DNA of 52,780 nt from an uncultured Candidatus Saccharibacteria bacterium (lineage in GTDB: Bacteria > Patescibacteriota > Minisyncoccia > Phycocordibacterales > UBA9973), in assembly GCA_964412965.1 (NCBI GenBank), contig CAYPQU010000001.1:91771-144550 (forward strand), in the 5' to 3' direction. Position numbers and translations under genes: made by a program. Below the pieces are notes generated by a model that was not told the DNA's origin, did no database searches, and was given only the letters and a program-made list of their open reading frames with translations. This document shows positions 8,138-37,082 of this stretch, piece after piece; positions within the stretch are counted from its first letter, which is position 1; each line of letters starts with the position of its first letter.

Positions 8138-8239
8138 TTTTTTGATTTTAATATTGTTATACACACCCCCAAAAAGGTTTGTTTTTATTCGTTTTTTAGG
8201 AGAATATACAACAACACTAAAATCAGACTATTTGCTTAA

Positions 8240-20581: not shown

Positions 20582-21046
20582 ATGAAAGAATCCAAGATAA
20601 AAGAAATAATAGAGGAAATTTTTAGACTAACATCTTGTTCCATTTCTGCTCTAGATATAAAAAATGAGAATAATATGGTTTGGTGTGCAATAGAGACGCC
20701 AGACTCTAGATTTATGATTGGTCGTGAAGGAGAAACTCTTAAATCTTTAAATCATTTAATCCAAAAAATTTTAGAGAAAGATTTTGAAGAAAATGAAGCT
20801 AAAAATATTTTAATTGATATTAATGGTTATCAAAAGAAGCGTTTTGATAATTTAAGAAACATAGCTCATATGATGGCAGAGAGGGCAAAATACTTTAAAA
20901 GCAATATAGAGATTGATCCAATGCCTGCTTTTGAAAGAAGAATCATTCATCTTTTTTTGGAGAACGACAAGGAAATTAAAACAGAATCTGAAGGAGAAGG
21001 GGCAAATAGAAGAGTGGTGATCAAATATATAAATAATCAAAGATAA
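20582..21046 (+). CDS. jag: Jag/EloR-type KH-R3H RNA-binding protein (lacks N-terminal Jag domain)
   Basis: MIGREGETLKSL (KH), PMPAFERRIIH...TESEGEGANRRVVI (R3H); position after yidC. Confidence 0.85.
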   Translation: MKESKIKEIIEEIFRLTSCSISALDIKNENNMVWCAIETPDSRFMIGREGETLKSLNHLIQKILEKDFEENEAKNILIDINGYQKKRFDNLRNIAHMMAERAKYFKSNIEIDPMPAFERRIIHLFLENDKEIKTESEGEGANRRVVIKYINNQR

Positions 21047-21079
21047 AAAAACACCCGAAAATCGGGTGTTTTTTTATCT
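21041..21079. terminator. Bidirectional terminator between jag and the T4SS-like operon
   Basis: 18-bp perfect stem AGATAAAAAAACACCCGA / TCGGGTGTTTTTTTATCT. Confidence 0.88.
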
Positions 21080-22540
21080 AATATCTACTCCCCAGAGAGT
21101 GTAGTCTTTTTTGTTAATAAAGTAGATTGTGTTTTCTTCTTTGTTTATAGATAAATTATAACCATCAACAGGAGTTCCCTCAATAGAGTTTACATACGTA
21201 ATACTTTCGCCACTATCGGTATTAATTTTTACTAAGAAATCGTCAAAAGAAACAATTCCTTGATACCAAGAATCAGGATATTGGTTACCTTTTATTGTGT
21301 TAGGAACAAAACAATAGACATTTATACTATCTAAACTCCAGGTACATTTATCAGCTAGCCCATAAGAGTCTAGGTCTATGAATTTTCTACCTTCTTCGAT
21401 AAAGGCCATGAGTCTGGGGCCTTTATTTTCTGAAGAACTATAAAGAACTCTTTTCCCATCAGGGCTAATTTTTGTCGTTAAACCATTGATTCCACCAATA
21501 ACCTTCCTTAATGTTTTATTGGATTGACTTAATAAGTACATGTTTCCAGGGGCTACAAATGAGGGCTTCGTGGTTAGATAGATATTTCCTTTGTTGTCCC
21601 AATCTGACAACCACTCAGTAAATTGATGGTTAAAGATGTTTTGGCTGGCCCCAGTTTCAAAATTTCTAACAATTCCAGTGGTCGAATTATTGCTTTTTAC
21701 TAAATAAAAAAATCTACTTTGATCTTTTGATACACTAATGTCTGTAATATTTACGGGCAAATACTCCCCTGTTGGTTTACCAAGAGTTGCTAAAAATGTA
21801 TTTACGGTGTTTTCGTTTGATAAGTATCGATAAATTGTTGTATTCCCTTCTTTGTTAAAGAAAGCCTCATAAATTCTTGGTATGGTGGAATTAGATATTT
21901 TTTCTGAAGAACGATCTTTTTCTAACATTTTATATAGGTGTCCATTTTTTCTCTCCACATAGCGTATAGCTGGAAGCATTTCGTATGCTGCTTCCCCGGG
22001 TATTATTTTTGTTTCAGTAAAAGTGGGGGCTGTGTCTTTGTCTATTTTGCCTGTTACAGGAAGGCCTCTTTCTTTTTGATAGATCTTTAGGGCTTCTGTG
22101 GTAGCTTGGTCAATTACTCCGTTTTCTATTAGGGGTTTTAAAAGCGTTATGTTTTTGTTTAAGATTTGTTGAATTTTTGCAACCCCTTCTTTGGTGTTAG
22201 GACTAATTGGAAACTGTGTTTCTTTTGGCTCGAGTGAGTTTTCTATTAGAGATCTTTCTGTTGTTATAGACACTCCAGATACAGCAAAGTCTGTAATTTT
22301 AAATAGTCTAGATTTTTGCGTGGGTGTTTCTGTCTCTGTTCCTAAATCGATACCCTCACCTGGACCTGTTGGTTGCCCAGTGTTCTCACTAGTGCCGAAG
22401 GGATTAAATTGTTGATACCAAGGTAATTCTGCTTCGGGGGTATTTTTACCCCCCCTGTTAAACCAGAAAAATCCAAGTAGTATTAGAACACCTGCTATTA
22501 TAAATGTGACTATAAAAATTTTTTTCTGTTTTGAAGACAT
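21074..22540 (-). CDS. Membrane-anchored protein with peptidoglycan-binding domain and C-terminal beta-propeller-like region
   Basis: N-terminal TM; VAKIQQIL...ATTEALKIYQKERGLPVTGKID (PG_binding_1 pattern); SVSKDQSRFFY and ISPDGKRVLY propeller-type repeats; start at MSSKQKK preferred over 22573. Confidence 0.7.
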   Translation of the reverse strand: MSSKQKKIFIVTFIIAGVLILLGFFWFNRGGKNTPEAELPWYQQFNPFGTSENTGQPTGPGEGIDLGTETETPTQKSRLFKITDFAVSGVSITTERSLIENSLEPKETQFPISPNTKEGVAKIQQILNKNITLLKPLIENGVIDQATTEALKIYQKERGLPVTGKIDKDTAPTFTETKIIPGEAAYEMLPAIRYVERKNGHLYKMLEKDRSSEKISNSTIPRIYEAFFNKEGNTTIYRYLSNENTVNTFLATLGKPTGEYLPVNITDISVSKDQSRFFYLVKSNNSTTGIVRNFETGASQNIFNHQFTEWLSDWDNKGNIYLTTKPSFVAPGNMYLLSQSNKTLRKVIGGINGLTTKISPDGKRVLYSSSENKGPRLMAFIEEGRKFIDLDSYGLADKCTWSLDSINVYCFVPNTIKGNQYPDSWYQGIVSFDDFLVKINTDSGESITYVNSIEGTPVDGYNLSINKEENTIYFINKKDYTLWGVDIR

Positions 22541-22545
22541 ATAAA

Positions 22546-23961
22546 TTATTGACCTGTTGTTGACCAGTGCCAAGGTTCTTTCCCTGACTTAAGATTAATA
22601 AGTAAGGGCCCGGCGTTTTTTGATAGCCACTTAAAACAGGTATTTTCTTTATTGTTAATTGGAGCACCGTCGCAGCGGAAATCTATAGCCTTACCAGACT
22701 CGTGCATAGAATAACCAGGGCGAGCTGTTTCGGGATTACATTGATTTGACGGAGTGTTGTCATCTGGACAACCATGCCTAATCCTAAGAGCCTTTTGTTG
22801 TGCTGTGCTTCTAGAGCCAAATCCTCCGAGTTTTACACCTTCGGTTTTAGCTTTTTCTAATAATTTTGTTAAATCTGCTGCTATCGTTTTACAAACATTA
22901 ATAGGAGATGGGGTTCCAGGAGCTATTACGTCTACGAAACCTTCTGGACAAAGTATTTTGCTTCCTGAAGACGAGTATTCTGACCATGGAACGTTTTCTG
23001 TTTCTGGATCTATTTTTATCTCGACGGCTCTTATGTTCACGCCCCCTCCACCAAGCAATCTAGGGTCAATTGTATTTAAAAGTGCATAAGCACTAAGAGC
23101 AATCAAAAGTCCAAACAAAGCATTTTTCATTTGTTCTCTCCATTTAGTTTTTCCAAAAATGGATTCTTCCCCCATATATAGGATACCAGCAACTACCAGC
23201 ATTACTACAGCTAATGCTCCACACAAGGCTATTCCTATCACAAAAATCTTGTTTAAATAGTCACCAACATTTTCTGGCGCTTCATTGAATCCTGCAAAAG
23301 GTGCTAGTAGTGTATATTTTTCCCAACTTGGTTTACTTTTTGCAACCCTAGGGTTTACTTGTATTATGCCATTGTCGGTGTCTTGGAAATAATAAGTATC
23401 TTCTTCAAGAGGTTTGCCGTTTTTATCGGAAATGAAACAGTTTTGCCATGTAGTGTCAAATCGAGACTTGTCGGCAAATGGATTATTTGAAGATGCGTTC
23501 ATACAAGAAGCTTCGTCCATAAACACCTCGCCACTAAGGTCTTTTTTGTCAGATCGATAATAACTCCAATATTTTGTGATACTATCTTGCGTGGTTGTAG
23601 TTTGTGTTGTTCCTGTGGTGGAGGCCTTAGGATTATTTGTAGTTGTGGTTGTAGTTTGTGTTGTTCCTGTGGTGGAGGCCTTAGGATTATTTGTAGTTGT
23701 GGTTGTAGTTTGTGTTGTTCCTGTGGTGATATTTTTAGGAATTTCTGGTGTTTTTTGCAAAACACAAGGACCAGCGTCTTGTCTTAGCGGTTTAGCTAAA
23801 AATTTATTTCGCTCGACATTACATTCTGTTTCTGTATTGTATGTGTGGATTGTTTTTATTGGTGATTCAGTAAAAGTCCAAGTATCAGCAGAAAAAACAT
23901 CTTTTTCTAAAACAGCAAAAAGGATTATAAAGATTGCTAGTGTTGTAATTATATTCTTCAT
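22546..23961 (-). CDS. CPR T4SS pilin (TrbC/VirB2-like) domain fused to an M15 (VanY-like) peptidase, with Thr-rich linker
   Basis: Signal peptide; GALAVVMLVVAGILYM...MKNALFGLLIALSAYALLNTIDP pilin hairpin; RSTAQQ, SMHESGKAID (SxHxxGxAxD) and EPWH M15 motifs. Confidence 0.8.
   Translation of the reverse strand: MKNIITTLAIFIILFAVLEKDVFSADTWTFTESPIKTIHTYNTETECNVERNKFLAKPLRQDAGPCVLQKTPEIPKNITTGTTQTTTTTTNNPKASTTGTTQTTTTTTNNPKASTTGTTQTTTTQDSITKYWSYYRSDKKDLSGEVFMDEASCMNASSNNPFADKSRFDTTWQNCFISDKNGKPLEEDTYYFQDTDNGIIQVNPRVAKSKPSWEKYTLLAPFAGFNEAPENVGDYLNKIFVIGIALCGALAVVMLVVAGILYMGEESIFGKTKWREQMKNALFGLLIALSAYALLNTIDPRLLGGGGVNIRAVEIKIDPETENVPWSEYSSSGSKILCPEGFVDVIAPGTPSPINVCKTIAADLTKLLEKAKTEGVKLGGFGSRSTAQQKALRIRHGCPDDNTPSNQCNPETARPGYSMHESGKAIDFRCDGAPINNKENTCFKWLSKNAGPLLINLKSGKEPWHWSTTGQ
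23591..23729. repeat. 54-bp in-frame tandem repeat (~2.6 identical copies) encoding TTGTTQTTTTTTNNPKAS
   Basis: Unit starts at 23591, 23645 and 23699. Confidence 0.92.
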
Positions 23962-23962
23962 A

Positions 23963-24970
23963 TTATAGATTTACATTAAAAACATTGGTAACTTTTTGGA
24001 ATAACTCCTGAAGATTTTCGATTGTTAAGCCTATTTCTACATATCCATCTCTAGATGCTGGCCTTATGGATATTTCGTTTTTCTTAGGCGTGGATACCAT
24101 TTCCCCGTTAACATACCAAGTGTAATCAAAAAGATTATCGTTGTTACCAGTTGCTAGATTGTAAGGAGAAGCAACAAAGGTCGCCTGATCTTCCTCCAAA
24201 CTGAAATCTGTCGTGATGCCTCTATTATAAAGGATTCCATCTGTGGGGGATTTTTTATAAAAAATTAAAGATGGATTATATAATGGAATCCCAACTTTTT
24301 TTGTCGCATTGTAATTACCAGAAACAGAAGATGCCACTACTTCAATACTGTTTATTGTCTCAAACGCACTATTTTTGAAATAATAAGAATTCATATTATA
24401 TCCAGAACTTTCTTCTTGTGTCTTATTGCTATTTTTCCATGTATAATCAATCTTTCCAATTCCAGAAGTGATAGTATTAGAATTAGGTAATGCTACTACT
24501 TTGATTACTCCACCCCTAGAAGGTAAAGATTTTCCTTTATAAAAAGGAGGTGTGTACCCATCAAACGATTCCCACAGTAAATCGATATCTGATGGACTAA
24601 TAACAATCTTCTTTTTTATTGCTCCAGATTGTTCAGCTGGATTAATAGTGATATCAAAACTAATAGACAAATCTGGTCCTGGTGCATTAAATGTGATATT
24701 TTTTTTCCCTATACCAGATTGTGTCATGCCATTGTTTGACTGCCAGGTAATAAAAGCTTTATCGATATCAGTAGCATAGCTATATAATCTTATAGTAACC
24801 TCCTCGTATGGCTCAGGATTTGTTGGTATCATTTCGTAATTAATTTCATTTTCTTGCACGGTAATTTGAGAATCTGCAAAATGAACACCCTGAAAAAAGA
24901 TGATTCCTAGTGTAAAAATGTTAATTAAAAAAGTTTTTAATTTAAGCTTACCCACTATTCTATTATACAT
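23963..24970 (-). CDS. Hypothetical exported beta-rich (Ig-like) protein of the T4SS-like cluster
   Basis: Signal/TM at the N-terminus; PTNPEPYEEVTIRL, PPFYKGKSLP, YTW motifs; co-oriented and closely packed. Confidence 0.6.
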   Translation of the reverse strand: MYNRIVGKLKLKTFLINIFTLGIIFFQGVHFADSQITVQENEINYEMIPTNPEPYEEVTIRLYSYATDIDKAFITWQSNNGMTQSGIGKKNITFNAPGPDLSISFDITINPAEQSGAIKKKIVISPSDIDLLWESFDGYTPPFYKGKSLPSRGGVIKVVALPNSNTITSGIGKIDYTWKNSNKTQEESSGYNMNSYYFKNSAFETINSIEVVASSVSGNYNATKKVGIPLYNPSLIFYKKSPTDGILYNRGITTDFSLEEDQATFVASPYNLATGNNDNLFDYTWYVNGEMVSTPKKNEISIRPASRDGYVEIGLTIENLQELFQKVTNVFNVNL

Positions 24971-24999: not shown

Positions 25000-26832
25000 T
25001 TATGCTCCACCAGAGTTCAATAGTTCATCTTTGGCCTTTTTAATTGCTAAAATTTGAGAAGGATCAGACGTAATTATCTGGTCTTCAGTATATGAAGCAA
25101 TTGTTTTGATTGCTACGTGCTTAAGTCCCGCGAAAAAGATACCCTCCCCCACATTGGCCTCTAACAAAAGATATTTTTCTTCATCTGTTAAGTTGAATGT
25201 TTTTTGTAAAACATCAACAGTAGAAGGAGATTGTTTTAAAAGAAGTTGCATTGATGAGTTTGTAACTATTGGGACTCCATATGGGCTTCTCATGAAGTCC
25301 CCAACATCTTGGGTAATAGTTGCTAAACCAAGCCAATATTTTCTCCCTCTTTTTGCAATTGAATACAAGAACGAGGCTGTGTCATCTGATTTCATCATCC
25401 ACCAAGCTTCATCCACCACCAGAAGTCTCTTTCTTATATTTTTTCTAACAGCGTTCCATATGTAGTGTGTCACAATATACATTGCGACTGGTTTTAAATC
25501 GTCCTCCATGTCTCGAACAGAAAAAACGATAAACTTTCTATTAATATCAACATTTGATGGTTGGTTTAAGAATGAAGACCAAGAACCCCTCGTGTATTTA
25601 ACCAGTCTTTGCATTAAAGAATCACTTCCCTCCATGCCAGATAGCACTATTTCAAAGTCTGACAACATTGGAGGTTCAATGTTTGAAAAGTCTGATTCGG
25701 CAGTGATATCTTTTAGTGCGTATGTTTCAGTAATAGCATGATCTATTATTGAGTCTTCTTCGGGGGTCAATCCTCCAAGCATAATTCTAAACAAGCCAAC
25801 AAGATTGATTACGTTAGCTCTTAATACATCAGCCCCTGTTTCGTCTCCTGTTGGGATCGGAAGGTCAAACGGATTTATGTGGTGATCTGAAGAAAGAGAT
25901 ATGTTAAAAAACCTTCCACCAACTGCTTCTGCTAAATACTCGTATTCTTTTTCAGGGTCAATTACAATAACTTCTGTATCAAACATCAGTGTTCTTAAAA
26001 TTTCTAGTTTTGTTGCGTATGATTTTCCAGCACCAGAAGTTGCAAAAGTAATAGAGTTATAGTTTGGAAGCGAAAATCTGTCAAGTAAAATAAGGCTAGA
26101 ATTGTGTCTGTTGACCCCATAAAGTATTCCCTTGTCTTCTGTAAGATCAAAAGAAACAAATGGGAAAATACTAGAAAGTGGCTCTGTGTTTAATTTTTGA
26201 CTAATAGTAAGAACATCACTTCCAATAGGTATAGAGCTCCTAAATCCTTCGTATTGTTGAAATAATGCAGGCTTTAGGTAGACAAGTTTTGATTCCAGTA
26301 TTGATTTAATTTCATTTTCAATCTTAAATAAATCATTTTCACTATCTGCGTAAACAGTTATATAAAGACTAACATCAAACATTTTTTCTTGAGCTTGCAT
26401 CAAATTATCTCGCAATTCTTCAAGATCTCTGTTGGCAGTGTCTAGCATGGGATCTCTAACCAGCCCTTTTGATTCTCGAACAGATATCTGGCTTTGAACC
26501 TCTGCCACCTTTTTTTGAAAAGCTCTTAATATTTCTGAAGTGTCAATTGGGTGGACAAAAATAGATATATCAAAAACTTTATCTAGGTTGATTATTGGAG
26601 AAAACCAGTTATCACTTAGGTATCTTGGATATGAAATAACAAAAAAGGTTCGAGCTATTTTGTCACCAAGATTCAGTGATTTCGGGGTTATTTGCATTGC
26701 TGAAGGCGCAATAATATCTTGGAGCTCTAGGGCTGCAGCTTTGTATATTTCGTTAGGCAGAATAGGCATAACAACCTTTTGGTCTATTATGGATTCTGGT
26801 TTTTTGTTAAATAATGAAGAAAATATTCCCAT
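25000..26832 (-). CDS. virB4: VirB4/TraC-like ATPase
   Basis: FATSGAGKSY Walker A, VIDPEKEY, INPFDL, LLVVDEAW Walker B, GRKYWLGLATITQ. Confidence 0.88.
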   Translation of the reverse strand: MGIFSSLFNKKPESIIDQKVVMPILPNEIYKAAALELQDIIAPSAMQITPKSLNLGDKIARTFFVISYPRYLSDNWFSPIINLDKVFDISIFVHPIDTSEILRAFQKKVAEVQSQISVRESKGLVRDPMLDTANRDLEELRDNLMQAQEKMFDVSLYITVYADSENDLFKIENEIKSILESKLVYLKPALFQQYEGFRSSIPIGSDVLTISQKLNTEPLSSIFPFVSFDLTEDKGILYGVNRHNSSLILLDRFSLPNYNSITFATSGAGKSYATKLEILRTLMFDTEVIVIDPEKEYEYLAEAVGGRFFNISLSSDHHINPFDLPIPTGDETGADVLRANVINLVGLFRIMLGGLTPEEDSIIDHAITETYALKDITAESDFSNIEPPMLSDFEIVLSGMEGSDSLMQRLVKYTRGSWSSFLNQPSNVDINRKFIVFSVRDMEDDLKPVAMYIVTHYIWNAVRKNIRKRLLVVDEAWWMMKSDDTASFLYSIAKRGRKYWLGLATITQDVGDFMRSPYGVPIVTNSSMQLLLKQSPSTVDVLQKTFNLTDEEKYLLLEANVGEGIFFAGLKHVAIKTIASYTEDQIITSDPSQILAIKKAKDELLNSGGA

Positions 26833-26836
26833 ATTA

Positions 26837-27502
26837 TTACTCGATTCTTATTCCTTGGCTAATATCACCAGGATTAAATGTTTTATAAAACAATTCTACT
26901 ACTTGGTCTGTTTTTAATTCTGTGGCTCGGATACCCATCCTTCCCAGCCCTCCTATTACTACCCCTACCCTTTGATCTAGCTGAGTCCTTTTTTCTTCAA
27001 AAGATATTAATTCAGAAGCTTCTTTTGATTTATTACCAGTCCCTCCACCAACGTTAACACTTCTACTGGCCCCCTTTAAAAGATCATCAAAAATTTTTCC
27101 AGTTTTAATCGTTGTTTCAGTATAAGGAACTACTATAAAAAAAGTTTTTGTCATAATATTAACTTCGTCAGTGAAAGTTTTGATGAAATCAATATATTCT
27201 TTCGTTTGTATTTTTAATAAAGGTTCAACTTGGTCTCTCATTCTGTTCTCTAGCGTTAATAAATATGGCCTAATATCTAATCGTCTTGATTGAACACATA
27301 TTTGTACAGTAAAATCCAAACTGTTTAAAAAATTCTGGAACTCTCTGATTATTGCTATTTGCTCATCAGAAGATTTAAGAGATAAGTTTAAGGAAGAAGC
27401 AAGCAAAACTGCCCTAAGGCCACCGTCTTTCAGTACGATGATTCCGTTTCTAACTTCTTTTATTGGAACAAAGTCTTGTGAACTTTTTGCGTTAATAGCC
27501 AT
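26837..27502 (-). CDS. VirB4-associated (TraC N-terminal-like) protein
   Basis: GIIVLKDG.LRAVLL.SSLN..LKS.DEQ, FQNFLNSLDFTVQICVQSRRLD; sits between PrgI and VirB4. Confidence 0.65.
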   Translation of the reverse strand: MAINAKSSQDFVPIKEVRNGIIVLKDGGLRAVLLASSLNLSLKSSDEQIAIIREFQNFLNSLDFTVQICVQSRRLDIRPYLLTLENRMRDQVEPLLKIQTKEYIDFIKTFTDEVNIMTKTFFIVVPYTETTIKTGKIFDDLLKGASRSVNVGGGTGNKSKEASELISFEEKRTQLDQRVGVVIGGLGRMGIRATELKTDQVVELFYKTFNPGDISQGIRIE

Positions 27503-27566: not shown

Positions 27567-27974
27567 TTACCTTTCTTCTTGTTCTTGAATGTCTAAACTC
27601 CAAGCCAAATCTTTTAGTTTGCTTGTGGTTGTCATTGGGACAATGGTAGTTAATGTTGGTTCTATTTCCTCTTTTTTCTTATCTTCGGCATGAACCAATC
27701 TTTGTTTCCATATAAAAAGCTTATTTGAAAAAAGATAATTAAAACCAGCTTGTAAATAAAAAACAAAAGGCTTGCCGTTCACTTTGTAAAAAGCTAGAAG
27801 TCCTGTCAGGATCCCCAGAGGAACTATTAATAGAATTGCTGCCCAAAAAGGAAATACTTTGTATACTATGTAGATGAGACCCGCTCCTCCGGCCAAATAA
27901 ACAAATTGCTTAAAGGTTAGTGGTCCAAAAAGCTTGTCTTCTACGTCTATAAATTGTGGAACTTTAAATTGCAT
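27567..27974 (-). CDS. PrgI family (VirB3-like) membrane protein
   Basis: MQFKVPQFIDVEDKLFGPLTFKQF, two TMs, AFYKVNGKPF. Confidence 0.85.
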   Translation of the reverse strand: MQFKVPQFIDVEDKLFGPLTFKQFVYLAGGAGLIYIVYKVFPFWAAILLIVPLGILTGLLAFYKVNGKPFVFYLQAGFNYLFSNKLFIWKQRLVHAEDKKKEEIEPTLTTIVPMTTTSKLKDLAWSLDIQEQEER

Positions 27975-28968: not shown

Positions 28969-31887
28969 TTAAGATGAACTTTGTTGTTGTTTTTCATATT
29001 TATCTATGGTTTCCTGTTCTTTCTCAATAATTTCTTTCTGTTTTGCTATAATGGATTCTTGCCTTTCTATGTTAGCTAGTAGCATTGCTTCTTTTTCTTT
29101 GCTCTTATTCTTTCTATCTAGGACACTAGAAATGTTCTTTATTTTAGCCTCACCATCTCTCTTTGTCTTATTGGCTTCAGCAAGCTCTCTTTGGGCGACC
29201 TGGCTTCCAGGATTTTGAGCTAAGATATTACTTAGTGAAATTATTCGAGCCTCTGCTTCTGAGACACTTTTGTTTACTTTTTCCATTGCTTGTTTAATGT
29301 GTTCTTTGTTGATATCCGCTATAGCTATTGGCTGACCTAATGTGTTCGCAACATCTTCCAGGTCTTTATTGATATCCTCCATTTCATTAGCAACATCTTC
29401 TTGACGACCCCTCATTTTTTCTATGATTTTTTCCACTTCTTCAACTTTGTTTTCTGCTCGAAGTTTGTTTTTTTCCGATAAGAAGTTTTCTTTGTGAGTC
29501 ACAGGTTTCTCGGCGTCAGGATCTTTTGATTTATCCTTTAGGTTTTTATCAATTCTGGCCATTGTGTTATCATTTGCGCCCCATACACCCCTCTTAAGAG
29601 ATTCTCTGTATGTTTGAACCTTTTCTCGATAAATCTGATCAGATGTTTTACCGTCGTTTTTATGTTTTTCTGTGTATTCTTTTTCGAACTTGTCTTGTTC
29701 TTTTTGATCAAAGGATTTACCCTTCCTGGCAAGTTCTTGAATCCTCTCGTTCTTCTCTTGATCCTTAATGTTGTTTTTATATTCTTCTTTGTATGCTTTC
29801 TCGTCGAAAGTACCACCACTATTCTCTACCTCGCGTTTTTTAGCATACATACTCCTCTGATACTTATCGTTGTATTCTTTTGCGGCGGCGTCTTGTTTTG
29901 CTGCTTCTGCATCAGAAGATTTTAATGTTTCAGCCATTTCTGTTTTCTTCTTTTCTACTCGACTCTGATAGTCAACATATCCTCCAGTCTTTCCTTTTCC
30001 AAGATTCTCCACTCCTGCTTCTTTGGCTACCTTTTTCCCAACATCTGTATTTCTTGCATCAAAACTACTCTTACTAGTAAAACTACCTATGTTTCTTAAC
30101 TGTCTTGCTCCCCACCCAGAGACACCTCCTTTGGCCGCTGCGTTTTGGAGTTTTTCGCTATTAGCAATACTTGCACCCATTTTACCTACCGTTGATCTCA
30201 TTGCAAAAGCACCTAGCCCAAGAGCTCCCCCAAGAGCTAATCCTCCGACCTTACCACCAATATTTCCAATCTTTGAAGTTATTGCTCCTGATATTTGTCC
30301 TGCTAGTTTAGTAGAGATTTTTTCAGCTTGTTTTAGGAGAACAATGATTACTATAAAAGGAATAATAACTGAAAGGACTTTGTTAAAATCAGTTAAAGAA
30401 GATGATTTTGTTAGTAGGTCTAACCCCATATTTGACTCCAAGAACATTACAATGATGTACATAAAGAAAACAAAGACAGGTGCCATAAAGGCAGCCTTAG
30501 TTGTTTCTGACCACCAACTAGACCACCCAACATAACTCCAATTTTGTGTTTCGGGTACCGTATAACTCAGAAAGGCTAGAGGAGATAAAACCATCGCGAT
30601 CCATAATCCAATAACTCTTCCTATGAAAGAAAGAGAGATTGTTAAAAAAGTCATCATTCCGACAAAGTTCACAATTGAAGCCATTATGGTGACAAGAATA
30701 AAAGTTCCAGCGCTGATGCCTTTACTTTCTTGTTCTATATTTGCCCTGGTTGTAATCTTCTGCGCATTGTCTCTGGCCACATTCTGGTTTTCTTGCAAAA
30801 GCAATCTTTGCGGATTGATTTTAGCAACTATTCCTTCAGACAATGGTATGTGTTCAAGTTCTTCATCTTGAGTATTATTTATTTCTCCACTAGCATCTTT
30901 TTCTCCTATAACAATAACTTTTGGATTATAAAACACTCTAGCCATTATATTTGAAGCATCGATGATTAAGTGTGTGGCAAAAAGACTAAAGTTTATTAAC
31001 AGACCAATTATTATTACATTTACAACACCAGCTTTATTTTTTGAACCACCAGAATCTAATATTGTAGTTAAAGCAATATAAAGAAGAATGAATATAAAGA
31101 ACATATTACAAAGATCTCTAACCACTTGCCAGCCCTCTGAAACAAAAGGTGTTCTATATGAACTATCGGAAACAGAATACATAATAGTAAAGTCCATTAC
31201 TGTACCTGCTAATCCAAAAAGGAAAGATGTTGGAACAAATAAAACATAGTAGAAAATTCTGGCAATACAACCCCCTATGTTTCTAAATCCGCAAGGTGGG
31301 AGATTTGATTGAGGAGCAACTCCTTCTGTTTCACCACTTAAATTTCCTCCTAAGCCAGTGTTTTCTGGTGTTGTATTTCCTTCTGGTAATGTCTCAGGGC
31401 CAAACTCCTGGGTCTCGATCACTATAGTATTCCCTGCAACATCTGGTTTTTCTAGGCCAAGATTACTTGTTTCTATAAGACTTTTTTCAAGATTAATGAC
31501 TAATTTGTATTGGGTCTCTGGTAATATTTTTTTATCGTCGAACAATAAGTCAAAAGGTTTTCCAATGTCTAGCTCCCTAATTGTTTTAAACTTTGTCTGA
31601 ATCTCTTTTTCATCTTTATCATAAAGGATGGCGGTGACTCTAATAGAAGCCTTTTCTGATCCTTTTAAAGACCTCCATAATTCAGAAACATTTTCTGCTT
31701 TTCCTACTGTGGTGGTAACTGTTATTGTCTTGTCTGTTACAAAAATAACATTATTAACATCTGCTCTCATTGTGTTTGCTCGAACTATTCTTGCTGAGAG
31801 TTTTTTGTTTAGAATGTCAATCGTAAAAGGCGCAAAGAATTGCATTATTACTGAAGATATTAAAATGAAAGGCAAAAATCTTTTCAC
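28969..31887 (-). CDS. VirB6/TrbL-like polytopic membrane protein with long coiled-coil C-terminal tail
   Basis: GWQVVRDLCNMFFIFILLYIA, LLINFSLFATHLIIDASN, LSPLAFLSYTVP...WWSET...AFMAP, 6-8 TMs, Gly-rich then K/E-rich tail; GTG start. Confidence 0.75.
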   Translation of the reverse strand: MKRFLPFILISSVIMQFFAPFTIDILNKKLSARIVRANTMRADVNNVIFVTDKTITVTTTVGKAENVSELWRSLKGSEKASIRVTAILYDKDEKEIQTKFKTIRELDIGKPFDLLFDDKKILPETQYKLVINLEKSLIETSNLGLEKPDVAGNTIVIETQEFGPETLPEGNTTPENTGLGGNLSGETEGVAPQSNLPPCGFRNIGGCIARIFYYVLFVPTSFLFGLAGTVMDFTIMYSVSDSSYRTPFVSEGWQVVRDLCNMFFIFILLYIALTTILDSGGSKNKAGVVNVIIIGLLINFSLFATHLIIDASNIMARVFYNPKVIVIGEKDASGEINNTQDEELEHIPLSEGIVAKINPQRLLLQENQNVARDNAQKITTRANIEQESKGISAGTFILVTIMASIVNFVGMMTFLTISLSFIGRVIGLWIAMVLSPLAFLSYTVPETQNWSYVGWSSWWSETTKAAFMAPVFVFFMYIIVMFLESNMGLDLLTKSSSLTDFNKVLSVIIPFIVIIVLLKQAEKISTKLAGQISGAITSKIGNIGGKVGGLALGGALGLGAFAMRSTVGKMGASIANSEKLQNAAAKGGVSGWGARQLRNIGSFTSKSSFDARNTDVGKKVAKEAGVENLGKGKTGGYVDYQSRVEKKKTEMAETLKSSDAEAAKQDAAAKEYNDKYQRSMYAKKREVENSGGTFDEKAYKEEYKNNIKDQEKNERIQELARKGKSFDQKEQDKFEKEYTEKHKNDGKTSDQIYREKVQTYRESLKRGVWGANDNTMARIDKNLKDKSKDPDAEKPVTHKENFLSEKNKLRAENKVEEVEKIIEKMRGRQEDVANEMEDINKDLEDVANTLGQPIAIADINKEHIKQAMEKVNKSVSEAEARIISLSNILAQNPGSQVAQRELAEANKTKRDGEAKIKNISSVLDRKNKSKEKEAMLLANIERQESIIAKQKEIIEKEQETIDKYEKQQQSSS

Positions 31888-31968: not shown

Positions 31969-34023
31969 CTACCAAACATTAAGCAAAGCCTCGTATTCTT
32001 TTATAGGGAATGTATAAACCCATTCACACCCGGTCGCGTATCCTCTTCCGTACATTCGACAGGATTCAAAAGTTTTGAAATTACTACAGTTAAAGTTTTT
32101 ATTATGAGGGTCTGTTTTCCCCTTTCTGCAATATCCAAAAGTGTCACTTATTTGAGGTTTACAAGCCTCTGTTCCCGATAGTTCGGGGGTGCATCCTTGG
32201 ATTGCTTCTATTCCGCGATTTGCATACGGATCTTCATATAAATAATCAGCAATAGCTTTTTCATCCAAATAAGAACCTCTATTGTCGTAATCATACCAAG
32301 GGTTACCATATTTTGCTGTTGGGCCTGTATAACTAGGGCTACTTGTTTCCGCATAGCACTCTTTAATTAAAGTGTCTAATTGGCCGATAAAATTATCTTG
32401 ATCTAAAATATCCAAGTACACACTCGAAATACTTTCTTCTGACTGAAGGCTTGGTGCTATTAAGAAAAATTTCTTAGTTAAATCAGCTAGCTTGGCTTTC
32501 TCTTCCTCAGTAAAGGTGATAGGATTTTGTTCTATTAACAGACACTTATCTTCTGTTGGTGATTCGGATTCTGAATCGTGAGTCGGTTTATATTCGTTTG
32601 ATAAAATACCATCTATATGACAGTTTGGGTCTTCTATATCAATAAATTTATCACCATCATTATCAAGAGTGTCGTTACAAGCGTACGACAAAATTGATTC
32701 TGAGTTATAGTTGGGTGTATATTCTTTATTTAAATCACCTCCTACGTGACAAACAGGATCTTTTTCGTCTATCAATCCATCATTGTCGTTGTCTAAAGTG
32801 TCACTACATTCCGTTGAGTTTTTTGACTCTGAATCATATTCTGGCAAGTACTCTGCATTTAAATCACCTCCTACGTGACACTGAGGATCGTCGATGTCAA
32901 TGAGTCCATCCCCATCGTTGTCTTTTTCGTCACTGCACTCTGGTCTGCCTCCCGTGTCTGGAAGAACATTGGTTACCGAAAAAGTTGTCCATCCGCCACA
33001 GTTGTTGTCTTCAAAAGCTTCGTTTATGGAACCTTCATCAGATAAATCTTTTTTGTCAGCACATGCTCTTATGTAATAATTTCCAATCGAAGTAAAAGTA
33101 TTTTTTACTTTAGCTATCGCAGTATCTCGAGAATTGATTTGTGGAATAGTTGTTAATAAAAATAAACTATTAATAGAATTTCCTTCTTTTGTATCAGATA
33201 TTGTAAACAATACGTTTACGTCTTGTCCTGAATTTTCATTGCCCCTATTTTCTATAATTGAAGAAAGTTCAACTTCTGTATTGACGGGTGAGCTAATTGG
33301 ATAAACTATACCAGTAGTTAAATCCACTCCCTCAATTCCAAAATCAGGATCAAAAGGACTTACTGATTCTGAATAGTGATCAGGCACATATTCTTTATTT
33401 AAATCACCTCCTACGTGACACTGAGGATCTTCGATGTCAATGAGTCCATCCCCATCGTTGTCTTTTCCGTCACTGCAAATAGAGCTAGGATCAAAAGGAC
33501 TTACTGATTCTGAATAGTGATCAGGCACATATTCTTTATTTAAATCACCTCCTACGTGACACTGAGGATCTTCGATGTCAATGAGTCCATCCCCATCGTT
33601 GTCTTTTCCGTCACTGCAAAATTGATTGAATTTAAATCCATTACCTAAGAATTGAGAAAAGGAATTCCAGAAGGAATTAAAATCGGCTTCTGCAATTTCT
33701 ATTTCTCCTGACGCCCCTGCTTCTATGTTAGAAATAGCCTTACCGATACTATTGTCAGAACCTTTTTTAACTTTTCTAATGTCGCCATCTTTACCTGTTT
33801 CAATAACACTGTCTCCTGCACTAATGTATTCCTCAGCTATAACAAGCTCCCTTTTTAGATTTTCAGAAGTTTCTAGAGGGTTAAATATCTTAGTTAAAAC
33901 AGAAGAGGTTTTTACTCCGAAAGAATCTTTATTTTTATAAGCTAGAAACAGAACCAAGATTAGTACTATTAATACTAGTAGAGAAATTATTATTGCCTTG
34001 TTTCTTTTTTTCTTGTTTTCCAT
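31969..34023 (-). CDS. Membrane-anchored surface protein with five Cys/Asp-rich Ca-binding-like repeats and a CARDB-like domain
   Basis: N-terminal TM; 5 x C.D..DND.DG.ID..DP.CH; IENRGNENSG...YYIRACAD...INEAFEDNNC (CARDB-like). Confidence 0.75.
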   Translation of the reverse strand: MENKKKRNKAIIISLLVLIVLILVLFLAYKNKDSFGVKTSSVLTKIFNPLETSENLKRELVIAEEYISAGDSVIETGKDGDIRKVKKGSDNSIGKAISNIEAGASGEIEIAEADFNSFWNSFSQFLGNGFKFNQFCSDGKDNDGDGLIDIEDPQCHVGGDLNKEYVPDHYSESVSPFDPSSICSDGKDNDGDGLIDIEDPQCHVGGDLNKEYVPDHYSESVSPFDPDFGIEGVDLTTGIVYPISSPVNTEVELSSIIENRGNENSGQDVNVLFTISDTKEGNSINSLFLLTTIPQINSRDTAIAKVKNTFTSIGNYYIRACADKKDLSDEGSINEAFEDNNCGGWTTFSVTNVLPDTGGRPECSDEKDNDGDGLIDIDDPQCHVGGDLNAEYLPEYDSESKNSTECSDTLDNDNDGLIDEKDPVCHVGGDLNKEYTPNYNSESILSYACNDTLDNDGDKFIDIEDPNCHIDGILSNEYKPTHDSESESPTEDKCLLIEQNPITFTEEEKAKLADLTKKFFLIAPSLQSEESISSVYLDILDQDNFIGQLDTLIKECYAETSSPSYTGPTAKYGNPWYDYDNRGSYLDEKAIADYLYEDPYANRGIEAIQGCTPELSGTEACKPQISDTFGYCRKGKTDPHNKNFNCSNFKTFESCRMYGRGYATGCEWVYTFPIKEYEALLNVW
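33346..33620. repeat. Two identical 134-bp copies (141-bp period) within the 684-aa gene
   Basis: 33346-33479 and 33487-33620 read base-for-base identical; diverged copies near 32580-32940. Confidence 0.92.
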
Positions 34024-34025
34024 AA

Positions 34026-37000
34026 TTATCTACGGAAGGCACCATTGCCTTGATTATTATTTTGATCACTAAAAGCATCACCACCAGTATTACTAAAAGC
34101 ATCACCACTTGGATTCATGGTTCCACCAGGAGTGGTTGAACCTCTTATTATGCGAGAACAGTCTGGGTCTAGAGAGTCAGTTAACCCGTCAAAATCATTG
34201 TCTAATCCATCATAACATCTGTCCTCGGTATTTCCATCACCATTCATTATTTCTAAATCATCATAAAAAATAATTTGTTCGGTTTCTAGACAGCTAGAGT
34301 ATTTGTTTTTATAATCAGAGAGTTCCATAATTTTTCCTCCCCTTCTTTCTGCTTCTTCGTTTAGTATTTCTATCATTCTAGCATCTCTTCTCTGCTGAGC
34401 AGCTTTGATAATTTTATCAACCTCTGTTTTTATTTTTTCTAACTCGTAGACACCAGCTTGGACAGTAGCAATATTATCTTTATAAGCATTAATTTTATCA
34501 GTAATTTCCTGGTTATAATCCATAATTTGTCCAGCTATAGGATAGGCCACCTTCCCCACGGGCAGATAGGCACTGTTAGGGATTTTTTCTGCAGTATCTT
34601 CATGAATAAAATATTCTATATTTACTAAACCGTCTGTTCCATAAAGAAAATTAACAATCGAAGAGTAGTCTTTTTCAAATTGTTTTATTCCGTCTTCTAT
34701 TGCGGAAATAAGCATATCAACTTTTTCTATTAAATGATTTTCTTTTAAATTAATTTTCTCTGTTCTTATATTTCCTGTGTTGATTATTTCTCTCCAAGTA
34801 GAGGTATTGGATATCTTACCAGATCCATAAGTTACCATATCTTTAAAACCAACGGTTACGCCGTTTAGCATTGATGGTGTGTCTTTAAAGACATTTAAAT
34901 ATTTATCGAAAGTGTCTTCTCCAGGCTTAGCTATTCCAAAGTCTGTATATCCTCTTTTAAACCACCTTGCTTGTGTTGTCGTTGTTTTTAAAGAATACAC
35001 AAAATCTACCATGGCATTTTGGTATTCTTCAATATTTAGCAGCCAATTTCTGTTTGGTCCAGGAAGACAATAGTCTAACTCTCCTATTTTAGGCATGATA
35101 GAGGGAAGTTTTTGTAGTATTTCTTTGGCCGCAACGATGTAATCATACTGTATTTGGATAACACCTCTCTTTCTAATTGGATAAGTTTCTGAAATGCATT
35201 TACCCTCCATATTTGTTTTGCATTTTTTCCAATTTTGCCACTTCTCCCCGTCCCAAAAAGCTCTGTCTCCTACTTCCCAATAAGTGTATCCGTTATCAAA
35301 AAGTTTAGCTCTTCCGGGTTTAGATACCACATAATATACATTGAGCGGATAATTTATACTACCATCTGATTTAATCACTAAAGGTCCTATTCCTTCTACC
35401 AGGTTTTCTCTCGCCCCATTTTTCTGTGTAGCAATATTAGTAGTTACATCCCAAGTACCAAGATTATTCTCTTTTGTTATGCCAAAGATAAAACGATTTC
35501 CTAGATCTCTTGTTAAATCAAAAGAGCCATTTGTGTACCCAGTAGTAAGGGATTCCCCAGCATCTAATGCTCTACTAGTAGAAAGTCCTGAAGTCCAATT
35601 GAAGCGATCATCTTCGTAGACAAAGCTTTCTTTGGTGTTAATACCACTTAGCCCTTGAGATTCTAATTTGCTTACTAACATGGAAAAAACTGAGTTTAAC
35701 ACATGGTTAATGTCGTCAGCCAGCTCCAATTGTCTTTCTGGAGAATTCAAATAGTGAGAAGTCTTATCTTTAATAATACTTCCTGGGGTAACTGTTTCCC
35801 ACTTAATACACACTCTAGGCTGTATTGCTTTTGAGTTTGTCGTGTTTTGGTAATCAGTCATTTGTTTTCTGTAATTTTCTTGAAGATTTTTACATTCCTG
35901 GCTTCTAATGTCTTCACATATAGGAGCTAGGGGGGCTTTTGCACTGATCTGATCTTTAGTCTCTTCTTTTGAATACTCAACACACATTCTTTGACTTAAA
36001 AAACCGTCGTTTTGTATTAACTCTTCTTTTACTTCTTGTTTCCTTGTAAACGCATCTTCGTGAATGATATCTGAAGCACTCATGAAATATCCAAGAGGGT
36101 TATCGGCTTCATTTTGGGTAAAAGCTCCCCAAGCATCCCACCCTCCTCGATTAAAACTATCATAATAAAGTTCAACTGCTCTTCGGGACTTTTCTAGTTC
36201 TGTTTGCTTATGATTTTCCAGATTGTTTAATTGTTCATTAGACAAGTAGCTTCTAGGGTCAGTTACAAAATAGGATAACGTAGAGGTAAGATTTTGAAGA
36301 GCAGCCACCCCGCTTCGTTTTATACTTTTATCATTAACAAAAGCTCGAGCAAAAGCATTGCTATATGGGTAGGCTCCATCTGTGGTTGGCATTAAATAAT
36401 TAAGAGCTTCCTCAAAAAGATTTCTCTCTATATTATCAAGAAAACTTTGAGTGTTTTGGACAAAAAAAGGATCTCCTCCAAAACCAGAATTAACCCAATT
36501 GATAGCGTATCTCGTCATGGAGGTTAATTGATTTTTTGCTAGAGTAAAAGCCACTCCTTTTAGACACTGGGCATAGTCAAGTTCAGCTTTTTCCCTATTT
36601 TCTTTTTTGTTTTCCCAATAGTAATCAAAAGTTCCCATTGTGGTTTTCGTTTCGCTTTGACAAAGATATTTAATTCCATTAACAATTGCCGTAGTTTTTC
36701 CAGCTGATGGTGTTTGAGAAGTTTCTGTTCCGGCTGTTACGGTAGCTACTTTCCCTCCCGCTCTGTCGCATTGAGCTTTTATTTTATTAGTCAATTTTGC
36801 TCCCATCACTAAAGAATCCCAAGCTGAAGAAGTTAGGTCTGTGAATGCGGTGGAGAATGTGTTTACAAATCCTGTACAACCAAGTATCTGTCCAAACAAA
36901 TCAGCATTAACTATATCTGTAATTTTGACTTTATAAGGAGAAACTTTGCTGTTTGGATTTTCCCAGTTTAAAACAGCTGCCTCTAGTTTTGTTGCCCCTG

Positions 37001-37070: not shown

Positions 37071-37082
37071 TTTGATTATTTT

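Follow-up and report, generated by a model that had tools for sequence, protein, structure and literature searches.

Here we report that a type IV secretion system (T4SS) operon encodes a protein in which a VirB2-like pilin core carries an M15B zinc peptidase domain at its C terminus, and that this C-terminal enzyme is an exchangeable cassette, with at least 12 unrelated types found behind one conserved core. Relatives of the protein are encoded in at least 228 species-level Paceibacteria-type genomes; the named ones are mostly called Paceibacteria, Nomurabacteria or Parcubacteria. Our literature search found no paper describing a fusion of a pilin with a wall enzyme, and a pilin core with swappable wall enzymes is apparently a conserved, undescribed way of equipping a secretion machine. 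We propose, with moderate confidence, that the protein is a pilin-anchored functional replacement for VirB1 in Paceibacteria-type T4SSs.

The DNA analysed here (the window) is a stretch of 52.8 kb from an ultrasmall Patescibacteria (CPR) bacterium of the Paceibacteria type, and the locus within it is a chromosomal, dnaA/oriC-proximal, Gram-positive-type T4SS operon with the fusion gene as its penultimate gene. From upstream to downstream, the operon has the following features in addition to the fusion gene.

31969..37988, minus strand: upstream operon genes, encoding proteins of 684, 1014 and 301 aa.
28969..31887, minus strand: candidate VirB6-like polytopic membrane protein of 972 aa, assigned from position and topology (no family match), with at least six hydrophobic segments and a long charged C-terminal tail.
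27567..27974, minus strand: PrgI/VirB3-like protein (Pfam PrgI, 38 bits).
25000..27502, minus strand: VirB4 ATPase, split into two genes (P-loop_TraG, 86 bits).
26837-27502, minus strand: TraC-like N-terminal part of VirB4, 221 aa (TraC-like is the annotation in homologous loci).
25000-26832, minus strand: P-loop part of VirB4, 610 aa.
23963..24970, minus strand: p335, a conserved secreted or anchored partner, the stop codon of which lies 1 nt before the pilin ATG.
21074..22540, minus strand: PGB499, the last operon gene and downstream partner, N-terminally anchored and with a PG_binding_1 domain (Pfam, 36 bits).
21041..21079, minus strand: strong intrinsic terminator (18-bp stem, then a T-run) that ends the operon and is common to the convergent jag gene.

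The fusion gene is located two genes downstream of VirB4 and is flanked by p335 and PGB499, for both of which PDB sequence searches gave nothing useful. In the upstream part of the operon, the 684-aa protein has a CARDB domain and Cys-flanked repeats of the DxDxDG type, the 1014-aa protein is secreted and the 301-aa protein has a single hydrophobic N-terminal segment. In Patescibacteria, VirB2-like T4SS pilins are encoded close to virB4 and dnaA, and most of these T4SSs have no recognisable VirB1 (PMC12102498). An earlier reading made from the sequence only had stated that VirB1 is absent here, and this stands for the operon, which contains no SLT/VirB1-type gene; elsewhere, the window does encode an M23 peptidase with LysM, at 43961-44956 (plus strand).

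The fusion gene itself (22546..23961, minus strand) begins with ATG and encodes 471 aa, arranged as a signal peptide, two disulfide modules, the T4SS_pilin core, a flexible linker and the M15B domain.

23887..23961, minus strand: signal peptide, aa 1-25, in a hydrophobic segment modelled by AF2 as a helix (aa 2-22), with a likely SPase I site FSA↓D (...VFSA↓DTW).
23728..23886, minus strand: N-module 1, aa 26-78, a small domain with Cys47/Cys66, present in close relatives only.
23590..23727, minus strand: Thr-rich spacer, aa 79-124, a perfect 54-bp tandem repeat of 2.6 copies, pLDDT <50.
23317..23589, minus strand: N-module 2, aa 125-215, a small domain with Cys153/Cys175.
23047..23316, minus strand: VirB2-like pilin core, aa 216-305, with a YxLLAP motif, a pair of TM helices connected by a short K/R-containing loop, and then LNTIDPxLL.
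22957..23046, minus strand: flexible linker of ~30 aa, aa 306-335, with pLDDT <50 at aa 308-316.
22549..22956, minus strand: M15B (VanY/LdcB-fold) zinc peptidase domain, aa 336-471, with R384, Q389, S418-H420-D427, E462-H465 and three conserved Cys pairs.

TRF places the Thr-rich repeat, which splits the two Cys-pair modules and shows 100% identity between copies, at nt 23591-23728. Every feature listed in the sequence-only reading (signal peptide, Cys pairs, Thr-rich repeat, hairpin and M15 motifs) is present, and the hairpin that it had placed at about 23050-23265 coincides with hydrophobic helices at nt 23262-23065.

The core belongs to a pilin family. When the 93-aa core is isolated, it scores 30.7 bits against T4SS_pilin (PF18895; gathering score 26.6) over profile positions 6-70 of 71, whereas the full protein stays just below that threshold (24.4 bits); all 22 family cores scanned alone match the same profile. 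A hairpin outside the pilin family had been named beforehand as the outcome that would speak against the fusion, and the match is to PF18895, a computationally defined Pfam family on which the pilin assignment rests. The core is also the best conserved region of the protein, with a mean identity of 61% to 75 homologues as compared with 50% for the enzyme, and the most invariant positions of the whole protein (Y216, L219, P221, T297 and P300) mark its two boundaries. Hydropathy analysis of the 471-aa protein defines segments at aa 1-26, 234-270 and 280-299, the last two joined by a short, basic inter-helix loop, GEESIFGKTKWREQMKN, and the AF2 model has core helices at 232-264 and 268-298. The TrbC/VirB2 profile (PF04956) scores below its gathering threshold (11.9-15.9 bits versus 27.9) and gives weak matches in 20 of the 22 cores, with a best E value of 4e-4. 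In searches against solved pilins (VirB2, TraA and others), the core has no sequence match, the best hit (E 3.2) being an unrelated protein, and all that Foldseek retrieved for the pilin-core region of the full model were generic helical hairpins. With 471 aa and extra N- and C-terminal modules, the protein lies outside the size range of a small single-domain pilin (~70-160 aa).

The closest described counterparts are the VirB2-like pilins of Patescibacteria (PF18895; Wang et al. 2023, PMC10633639; Quinonero-Coronel et al. 2025, PMC12102498), which belong to the same core family, likewise have a two-helix hairpin behind a signal peptide, have genes adjacent to virB4 and close to dnaA, and include stand-alone members at the identical position. 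The described pilins are ~100-160 aa long and have no extra domains, whereas the window protein adds ~190 aa at the N terminus and a catalytic C-terminal part of ~140 aa. In sister lineages (loci L092 and L093), a stand-alone pilin of 150 aa occupies the same position in the operon. Stand-alone relatives are 81-163 aa long, start just before YxLLAP, end shortly after LNTINPxLL and are homologous to the window protein across the whole core; in these lineages, the T4SS exists without an enzyme on the pilin.

The fusion protein is the pilin of this locus. A search of the 52.8-kb window with an HMM of the core family found nothing at E<1 besides the fusion gene, and the only window ORFs of 60-300 aa with at least two hydrophobic segments encode YidC, a ZIP transporter and a methyltransferase-like protein or are antisense ORFs. 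The earlier suggestion of a minor or tip pilin is therefore not borne out: the window has no other pilin-like gene, and this one is orthologous by position to the lone stand-alone pilin of the sister lineages.

The C-terminal domain matches Pfam VanY (PF02557) over aa 356-467 with 35 bits (gathering score 25; E 1.4e-8), and a profile search matches it to VanYB (PDB 5hnm) with an E value of 4.5e-15. The motifs GSRSTAQQ (R384, Q389), SMHESGKAID (418-427) and EPWH (462-465) are present and kept in 72 to 76 of 76 homologues, and the zinc and catalytic residues S418, H420, D427, E462, H465 and R384 are each found in 74 or 75 of them. AF2 models aa 330-471 with pLDDT >93, and the top 16 Foldseek matches of the model are all LdcB, VanY, VanXY or VanX (E down to 2e-6, probability 1.0), the best PDB fold matches being LdcB (4jid, 4mph and 4ox3) and VanY (5hnm). 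The sequence-only description of an intact M15 domain thus holds, with all zinc and catalytic motifs in place on an LdcB/VanY fold. By sequence, the domain is placed within the superfamily and is not an LdcB orthologue (19.3 bits for the LdcB equivalog NCBIfam NF041194, versus a cut-off of 275). VanY, LdcB (DacB) and M15 endolysins such as Ply500 have the fold, the zinc ligands and the SxHxxGxAxD and ExxH motifs in common with it, whereas three extra conserved disulfide pairs and the C-terminal tether to a T4SS component set it apart from VanY and LdcB. The domain is predicted to lie outside the cell, because a signal peptide is combined with an even number of TM segments and the domain has three conserved Cys pairs; the topology check proposed earlier therefore points to an extracytoplasmic and not a cytoplasmic location. 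We infer that the domain is catalytically active, and its bond specificity may be that of a DD- or LD-carboxypeptidase or of an L-Ala-D-Glu endopeptidase.

The gene order around the fusion is fixed in relatives: VirB4, p335, the core with its enzyme, and a peptidoglycan-binding protein. Among 91 related loci, PGB499 is found downstream in 87, p335 upstream in 85 and VirB4 in 80, and the position inside the T4SS operon is constant across 79 distinct species-level loci. At E<=1e-30, 198 clusters (50% identity) match; of the 150 clusters listed, almost all do so as one stretch spanning the core and VanY. As to the domain co-occurrence that had been suggested as a check, relatives have the core and VanY in one continuous architecture across these 198 clusters.

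Although the position is constant, the enzyme is not. Behind the core, other genomes carry VanY, M15_4, YkuD, NlpC/P60, Amidase_2, SLT, SLT_2, SLT_3, lysozyme types or unassigned types, as typed with custom HMMs and Pfam matches that are sub-threshold for some SLT-like groups; the counts favour VanY, since a VanY-type protein served as the search seed. Locus L010, on a contig with ~1x coverage whose mosaic could be chimeric, encodes a protein identical to that of the window at 317 of 320 positions through aa 320 and unrelated beyond. The alignment ends at nt 23001, which puts the exchange breakpoint in the linker, near aa 313-320, and the enzyme differs between strains with an upstream flank (2 kb) that is >=99.8% identical. 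Since L010 is possibly chimeric, the swap pattern was checked in independent pairs, and L046/L047 and L042/L052 show the same pattern. Nearest neighbours carry different enzyme types in 58 of 74 cases. The N-module and the enzyme are both hypervariable, while the core and the flanks are collinear, and in relatives N-module 2 is found together with VanY, HYH or YkuD C termini.

HYH is the second commonest cassette (18 of 115 homologues). Its residues H411, H417, D425 and H471 are invariant and E407 and H473 nearly so; it has no Pfam, PHROG or PDB sequence match, and its weak AF2 model (pLDDT 66.5) has no Foldseek match at E<0.1. A LAS-type zinc peptidase was suspected, but HYH stays unassigned, with no relationship to the VanY cassette in hhalign. 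No family was found for the types u90, u81, u85 and u119. The downstream gene was also considered as an immunity protein and rejected, as the same PGB499 homologue stands beside VanY, YkuD, NlpC/P60, SLT and HYH alike.

In the mechanism that we propose, Sec would export the protein, a VirB2-family membrane subunit ('pilin') that may polymerise, and its signal peptide would be cleaved. The hairpin of the two helices would then run out-in-out, its short K/R-containing loop in the cytoplasm, so that the variable N-terminal module and the enzyme at the C terminus both end up on the outer side of the membrane. The M15B enzyme, on its linker of ~30 residues, would trim or cleave peptidoglycan stem peptides beside the secretion channel and so do the work of the separate VirB1, PrgK, TraG or CwlT hydrolases of other T4SSs, and recombination within the conserved linker that follows the core would swap it for unrelated peptidoglycan enzymes. 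We infer both the membrane topology and the choice of wall, with a slight preference for the cell's own as the primary substrate. Taken as a whole, this best explanation stands for us about evenly between being right and being wrong.

Comparison with known systems bears on the proposed replacement of VirB1, a claim already made in the sequence-only reading. VirB1 (Agrobacterium), PrgK (pCF10), TraG (pIP501), CwlT (ICEBs1) and TcpG (pCW3) are wall-active enzymes encoded in a T4SS operon, as here, and T4SS hydrolases in monoderms are usually membrane-anchored and modular. The claim is reasonable, because in other genomes positional orthologues of the window protein carry SLT or NlpC/P60, the classical VirB1-type catalytic domains, and the operon has no separate gene of that type. 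It does not extend to the window enzyme as a domain, which is M15B and thus falls outside the SLT, CHAP, NlpC/P60 or M23 domains of VirB1-type hydrolases. The anchors also differ, with a pilin-like hairpin in the window protein and a single N-terminal TM segment in VirB1-type hydrolases, and the enzyme classes at this one orthologous position cover a far wider range than is known from VirB1-type systems. Because VanY/LdcB-type enzymes are typically stem-trimming carboxypeptidases and YkuD is a transpeptidase fold, pure 'hole-punching' fits only some of the cassettes. Replacement of the enzyme and the N-module at the strain level would be unexpected if the sole substrate were a slowly evolving own wall, an observation that runs against the own-wall reading.

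An alternative that we hold tentatively, close to the inference of the sequence-only reading, is a weapon or tool directed at the host, in which the core polymerises or is extruded and shows the N-module and the enzyme to the host, whose peptidoglycan the enzyme would breach, weaken or harvest. If cassette exchange tracks host wall chemistry or resistance, the gene would help set host range. Of the T4SS parts, only the one that bears the enzyme is predicted to reach outward, and T4SS and pilins are essential for the epibiotic growth of Saccharibacteria (PMC10633639). The hypervariability of both surface modules between collinear cores and flanks, seen even in the strain pair that is nearly identical over the upstream 2 kb, argues in the same direction. 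Polymorphic peptidoglycan-targeting effectors (T6SS Tae, Tge and Tlde1; Rhs, CDI and LXG-type) combine a conserved carrier with interchangeable C-terminal enzymes exchanged at a junction. The window family likewise has a conserved part and a swappable C terminus, the enzyme classes overlap (NlpC/P60, lysozyme-like and YkuD), and the cassette repertoire (NlpC/P60, lysozyme/SLT, amidase, YkuD and M15), which includes non-lytic remodelling enzymes, resembles that of antibacterial effectors such as the T6SS families. Unlike those effectors, however, the family has no co-varying downstream immunity gene, PGB499 being there whatever the enzyme type, and its conserved part is the membrane hairpin of the machine and not a secreted carrier. 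No pilus has been shown for these systems and, to our knowledge, for any PF18895 member. Subunits with ~190 aa at one end and ~170 aa at the other might be hard to pack into a VirB2-type filament. Some cultured Paceibacteria live as parasites of methanogenic archaea, which have no murein, yet express T4SS pilins and peptidoglycan-binding proteins highly. The donor's own wall is, as far as we know, the target of every characterised T4SS hydrolase, which counts against a host target. That the pilin is an effector carrier, extruded to the host with a strain-specific N-terminal binding module and a C-terminal enzyme that are both swapped at the core boundaries, we consider doubtful.

It is improbable, although not without precedent, that the protein is a pro-pilin or polyprotein from which the N-module and the enzyme are cut off at the core boundaries (YxLLAP on one side; LNTIDPxLL followed by GGVNI on the other), yielding a pilin of normal size and a free wall enzyme at the assembly site. 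Two-sided propilin processing occurs in IncP TrbC and Ti VirB2. The invariant boundary positions, the low pLDDT of the adjoining linkers and the ends of the stand-alone pilins, which fall at the same two places, would all fit such processing. The boundary motifs are, however, also present in the stand-alone pilins and may thus simply belong to the pilin fold, and the operon contains no recognisable dedicated peptidase, TraF-like or other.

A housekeeping membrane-anchored DD- or LD-carboxypeptidase (LdcB/DacB-like), lying beside T4SS genes by chance with the hairpin as a generic anchor, is very unlikely. NCBI names relatives 'D-alanyl-D-alanine carboxypeptidase family protein', and the best structural matches are LdcB and VanY. 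Against this stand the constant operon position across species, the unrelated enzyme classes or stand-alone pilin found there, a core that matches a pilin family and is better conserved than the enzyme, and the LdcB equivalog score (19 bits); we reject this reading on synteny and regard it as close to refuted. A frameshift or assembly error joining a pilin gene to a peptidase gene has nothing specific in its favour beyond the very low coverage of the comparator contig of L010, and is ruled out, with negligible probability, by the recurrence of the continuous architecture in the 198 clusters and in dozens of independent MAGs from different studies.

As a pilin-anchored replacement for VirB1, the protein would account for the missing wall hydrolase of a large clade, built into a pilin-like subunit. 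Our analysis also singles out which two surface-exposed parts of the T4SS machine vary most, and it provides handles for further work: a soluble, disulfide-stabilised enzyme domain, natural 'isogenic' cassette swaps, and a marker gene with which enzyme type can be set against host identity in metagenomes. In the single system examined so far, epibiotic growth requires the Patescibacteria T4SS (PMC10633639). Should the enzyme act on the host, the protein would be the first T4SS pilin that is also an enzymatic effector; and if the pilin is indeed an effector carrier, one gene would be the host-range or host-wall 'key' of CPR epibionts, possibly harvesting host wall fragments.

The open reading frame at 22546–23961 on the minus strand is an uninterrupted frame of 471 codons with an ATG start, and its translation comprises the following features, all on the minus strand.

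aa 1–25 (...VFSA/DTW): signal peptide
Cys47/Cys66: small N-module 1
nt 23591–23728: Thr-rich spacer (perfect 54-bp tandem repeat, 2.6 copies, 100% match)
Cys153/Cys175: small N-module 2
aa 234–270 and 280–299 (nt 23262–23065): two strongly hydrophobic segments
between these segments and the C-terminal domain: Gly-rich linker
C-terminal domain: motifs GSRSTAQQ, SMHESGKAID and EPWH

Every feature listed in the sequence-only reading was found where that reading placed it, including the transmembrane pair, which fits its hairpin at 23050–23265. The spacer repeat (23591–23728) encodes TTGTTQTTTTTTNNPKAS; related Thr-rich repeats are present in one relative, P0006, and the spacer is wholly missing from another, P0009. 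It may serve as a stalk of variable length that is possibly glycosylated.

In the full protein, residues 234 to 297 match the Pfam family T4SS_pilin (PF18895) with 24.4 bits, slightly below the cut-off of 26.6; scanned alone, the 93-aa core reaches 30.7 bits and exceeds it. PF18895 also matches all 22 of the family cores tested, consistent with the proposal that the hairpin belongs to the pilin family, and the cores scanned gave only weak, sub-threshold matches to TrbC/VirB2 (PF04956).

The C-terminal domain matches VanY (PF02557; residues 356 to 467, 35 bits against a gathering score of 25), and a profile of 76 homologues retrieves VanYB (5hnm, E 4.5e-15) and LdcB (about 1e-11) from the PDB. 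The AF2 model has a pLDDT above 93 over residues 330 to 471, and each of the 16 best matches found by Foldseek is an LdcB, VanY, VanXY or VanX. In the LdcB equivalog test, the protein scores 19 bits, below the cut-off of 275. Of the 76 homologues, 74–75 retain each zinc ligand and catalytic residue (R384, S418, H420, D427, E462 and H465), and the M15 domain looks functional. Cys338/357 never vary, and 74 of the 76 homologues keep each of Cys408, Cys430 and Cys442, which indicates a disulfide-stabilised secreted domain. VirB2-type propilins have both ends outside and a short loop in the cytoplasm; with an apparently cleavable signal peptide ahead of two membrane spans, this protein would likewise hold its N-module and M15 domain outside the membrane, and a short K/R-containing loop in the cytoplasm. 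The motifs of the enzyme are intact, as first noted, and its extracytoplasmic position is predicted.

The pairing of pilin and M15 domains is recurrent. Searched exhaustively, 1.84 billion cluster representatives gave 198 clusters at E ≤ 1e-30, and nearly all of the 150 clusters listed match the core and VanY as a single unbroken stretch; the core is found in 115 of 120 database homologues. When one genome was scanned for each GTDB species, relatives turned up in at least 228 species; most titles among the matches listed name Paceibacteria, Paceibacterota, Nomurabacteria, Parcubacteria, Wolfebacteria or Minisyncoccia. Across 91 fetched loci, the gene order VirB4, p335 (a secreted or anchored partner), core–enzyme fusion, PGB499 (an N-terminally anchored PG_binding_1 protein) and convergent jag is almost invariant, with PGB499 present in 87, p335 in 85, VirB4 in 80 and Jag in 79, absences occurring mainly where contigs end. 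The fusion is no accident but a conserved family.

Behind the shared core and an approximately 12-aa junction (GGVNIxxVxAEI) lie VanY, divergent VanY, Peptidase_M15_4, YkuD, NlpC/P60, Amidase_2, the SLT, SLT_2 and SLT_3-like lysozyme folds, and several unassigned types; profile–profile comparison revealed no mutual relation among the types tested. Enzyme type does not track phylogeny: of 74 loci, 58 differ in type from the locus with the closest p335, including pairs whose p335 proteins are 100%, 94% and 86% identical. Over 8 kb, the related locus L010 matches the window at 98.2% identity (at least 99.8% in the 2 kb upstream), and its fusion protein shares 317 of 320 residues up to aa 320; similarity is absent over the whole C-terminal domain and returns exactly at the stop codon, at 86–92% identity. 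Because L010 has a coverage of only about 1x, two independent locus pairs, L046/L047 and L042/L052, were checked: their flanks are collinear (about 77–86% identity), and inside the gene the core alone aligns, N-module and C-module both being unalignable. The window protein's N-modules occur only in close relatives, joined freely to VanY, HYH (an unassigned type) or YkuD C-termini. Compared with the window protein, 75 VanY-type homologues are on average 61% identical in the pilin core, 50% in the M15 domain, 35% in the linker and 17% in the N-module. Two loci, L032 and L079, each carry two core–enzyme paralogues, one on either side of PGB499. The C-terminal enzyme is an exchangeable cassette.

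The paralogues are SLT-like and VanY in L032 (1131–2423 and 3839–4837), and an unassigned type, u90, and NlpC/P60 in L079 (3761–4948 and 6354–7421). The PGB499 genes of the window (21074–22540, minus strand) and L010 (8497–9963) are 86–92% identical, the upstream genes at least 98% over the nearest 5 kb, and portions of the L010 copy are 99% identical to L011; either recombination has made a mosaic of the region beyond the cassette breakpoint, or the L010 assembly is chimeric. The HYH cassette (about 165 aa) recurs in L010 (7056–8489), L009, L011, L039, L060, L071 and L077, and contains GGTECWLHS...H-x7-D...HYH, with H411, H417, D425 and H471 invariant and E407 and H473 almost so. It has no match in Pfam, PHROG, PDB or Foldseek; a wall enzyme that depends on metal and is new to description is one possibility.

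The window is a stretch of chromosome near the origin of replication, with dnaA, dnaN, rnpA, yidC and jag, together with genes for a class A PBP, tyrS, ruvABC, polA and further housekeeping genes. The fusion gene is the last but one of a minus-strand operon running from about 37988 to 21074.

gene 1: 301 aa, single hydrophobic N-terminal segment
gene 2, 34026–37070: 1014-aa secreted protein
gene 3, 31969–34023: 684-aa CARDB/Ca-repeat protein
gene 4, 28969–31887: 972-aa polytopic protein, candidate VirB6-like
gene 5: 329-aa acidic protein
gene 6: PrgI/VirB3
genes 7 and 8, 25000–27502: 221-aa TraC-like protein, then VirB4 ATPase (610-aa P-loop)
genes 9, 10 and 11: p335, fusion protein and PGB499 (N-terminal anchor, PG_binding_1)
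21041–21079: strong terminator, after PGB499

A single nucleotide separates the p335 stop codon from the fusion ATG. VirB4 is apparently encoded by two genes, the TraC-like N-terminal protein and the P-loop ATPase, a split identical in all related loci examined. In the 684-aa protein, a CARDB domain is accompanied by at least six repeats of an Asp-rich motif flanked by Cys (C-x-D-x-x-D-N-D-G-D-G-L-I-D-x-x-D-P-x-C-H) and resembling a calcium-binding site; one copy ends the 1014-aa protein. Beyond its membrane domain, the candidate VirB6-like protein has a Lys/Glu-rich tail of about 400 aa, which resembles a coiled coil and is longer than is usual in VirB6.

Outside the operon, a PilB-like T2SSE ATPase of type IV pilus or competence machinery (8338–10038, plus strand) adjoins ruvB and ruvC about 12 kb away. 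Two small proteins (42766–43434 and 7436–8164, both minus) have a hydrophobic N-terminal segment, likely a signal peptide, and a second hydrophobic segment downstream; the tail is Cys-rich in one, which also has a Thr-rich stretch, and Gly/Pro-rich in the other, and no family match was found for either.

The operon is the Patescibacteria T4SS of Quinonero-Coronel et al. 2025 (PMC12102498), which is related to monoderm MPF-FATA conjugation machinery, has VirB2-like pilins and often adjoins dnaA. In Saccharibacteria, the T4SS is essential for epibiotic growth (PMC10633639; PMC12857230).

The fusion protein had been proposed to be a minor or tip pilin, an assignment that the locus contradicts. 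Neither the family HMM nor a search for small two-TM proteins found a second pilin-like gene in the 52.8-kb window. The core profile retrieves hundreds of stand-alone pilins of 81–163 aa, some called 'pilin' by NCBI, which are 35–55% identical over the whole core, YxLLAP and LNTINPxLL boundary motifs included. Two of these, on 220-kb and 617-kb contigs, occupy exactly the same position, flanked by p335 and PGB499 homologues and adjoining jag/yidC/dnaA. Given this whole-core homology and identical position, sequence comparison identifies the fusion protein as the orthologue of the system's single pilin, with extra modules grafted on.

These facts support a predicted T4SS pilin-family membrane subunit carrying a putatively active, extracytoplasmic peptidoglycan enzyme on a flexible tether. 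VirB1 is missing from most Patescibacteria T4SSs (PMC12102498), and here too, as first noted, the operon has no separate hydrolase. The sole other wall hydrolase recognised within the window, a protein with two LysM and a Peptidase_M23 domain (43961–44956, plus strand), lies on the opposite strand about 6 kb past the operon's upstream end and is probably a cell-division or wall enzyme; such M23/LysM proteins are included among the 'VirB1 homologues' of PMC12102498. In other species, SLT or NlpC/P60 domains, the catalytic domains of VirB1, PrgK, TraG and CwlT, occupy the position of the fusion enzyme. With no separate hydrolase present, the most economical reading is that the fused subunit would provide the T4SS wall-remodelling activity, and to that extent the suggestion that it replaces VirB1 is reasonable.

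Whose wall would be cut is more finely balanced. That the enzyme is directed at the host wall, as originally envisaged, is a serious rival: exchange affects both of the exposed modules even between strains, the range of cassettes is like that of antibacterial peptidoglycan effectors and takes in non-lytic remodelling enzymes (VanY, YkuD), and the enzyme is attached to the sole component expected to reach outward. Nevertheless, the producer's own wall is slightly favoured as the substrate, because to our knowledge every characterised T4SS hydrolase targets its own wall, a tether of 30 residues would let the enzyme reach that wall from the producer's membrane, and the conserved PG-binding partner is anchored in the same membrane. 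Methanogenic archaea have no murein. Some Paceibacteria parasitise them and still express T4SS pilins and PG-binding proteins highly (PMC10936435), which again slightly favours the own wall. On a third, less likely reading, proteolysis at the strongly conserved boundaries of the core would release a normal pilin and a free enzyme. Readings as a housekeeping carboxypeptidase or an assembly artefact were effectively ruled out.

Published work already covers the Patescibacteria T4SS, including its pilin family and its oriC-proximal location, and both M15B enzymes and the hydrolases associated with T4SSs are familiar. In the searchable literature, we found no description of a VirB2-like subunit fused to peptidoglycan enzymes, of such a subunit as the fixed locus pilin across a large Paceibacteria clade, or of cassette-like exchange of both exposed modules. 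The architecture is visible in precomputed Pfam annotations, and NCBI names members simply carboxypeptidases. The virB4-associated VirB1 homologues occur mainly in Paceibacteria (Quinonero-Coronel et al., PMC12102498), which would fit if some published 'VirB1' hits and 'VirB2' hits came from one set of fusion proteins. We regard the fusion as a real, widespread and mechanistically suggestive feature of this T4SS, with predicted roles.
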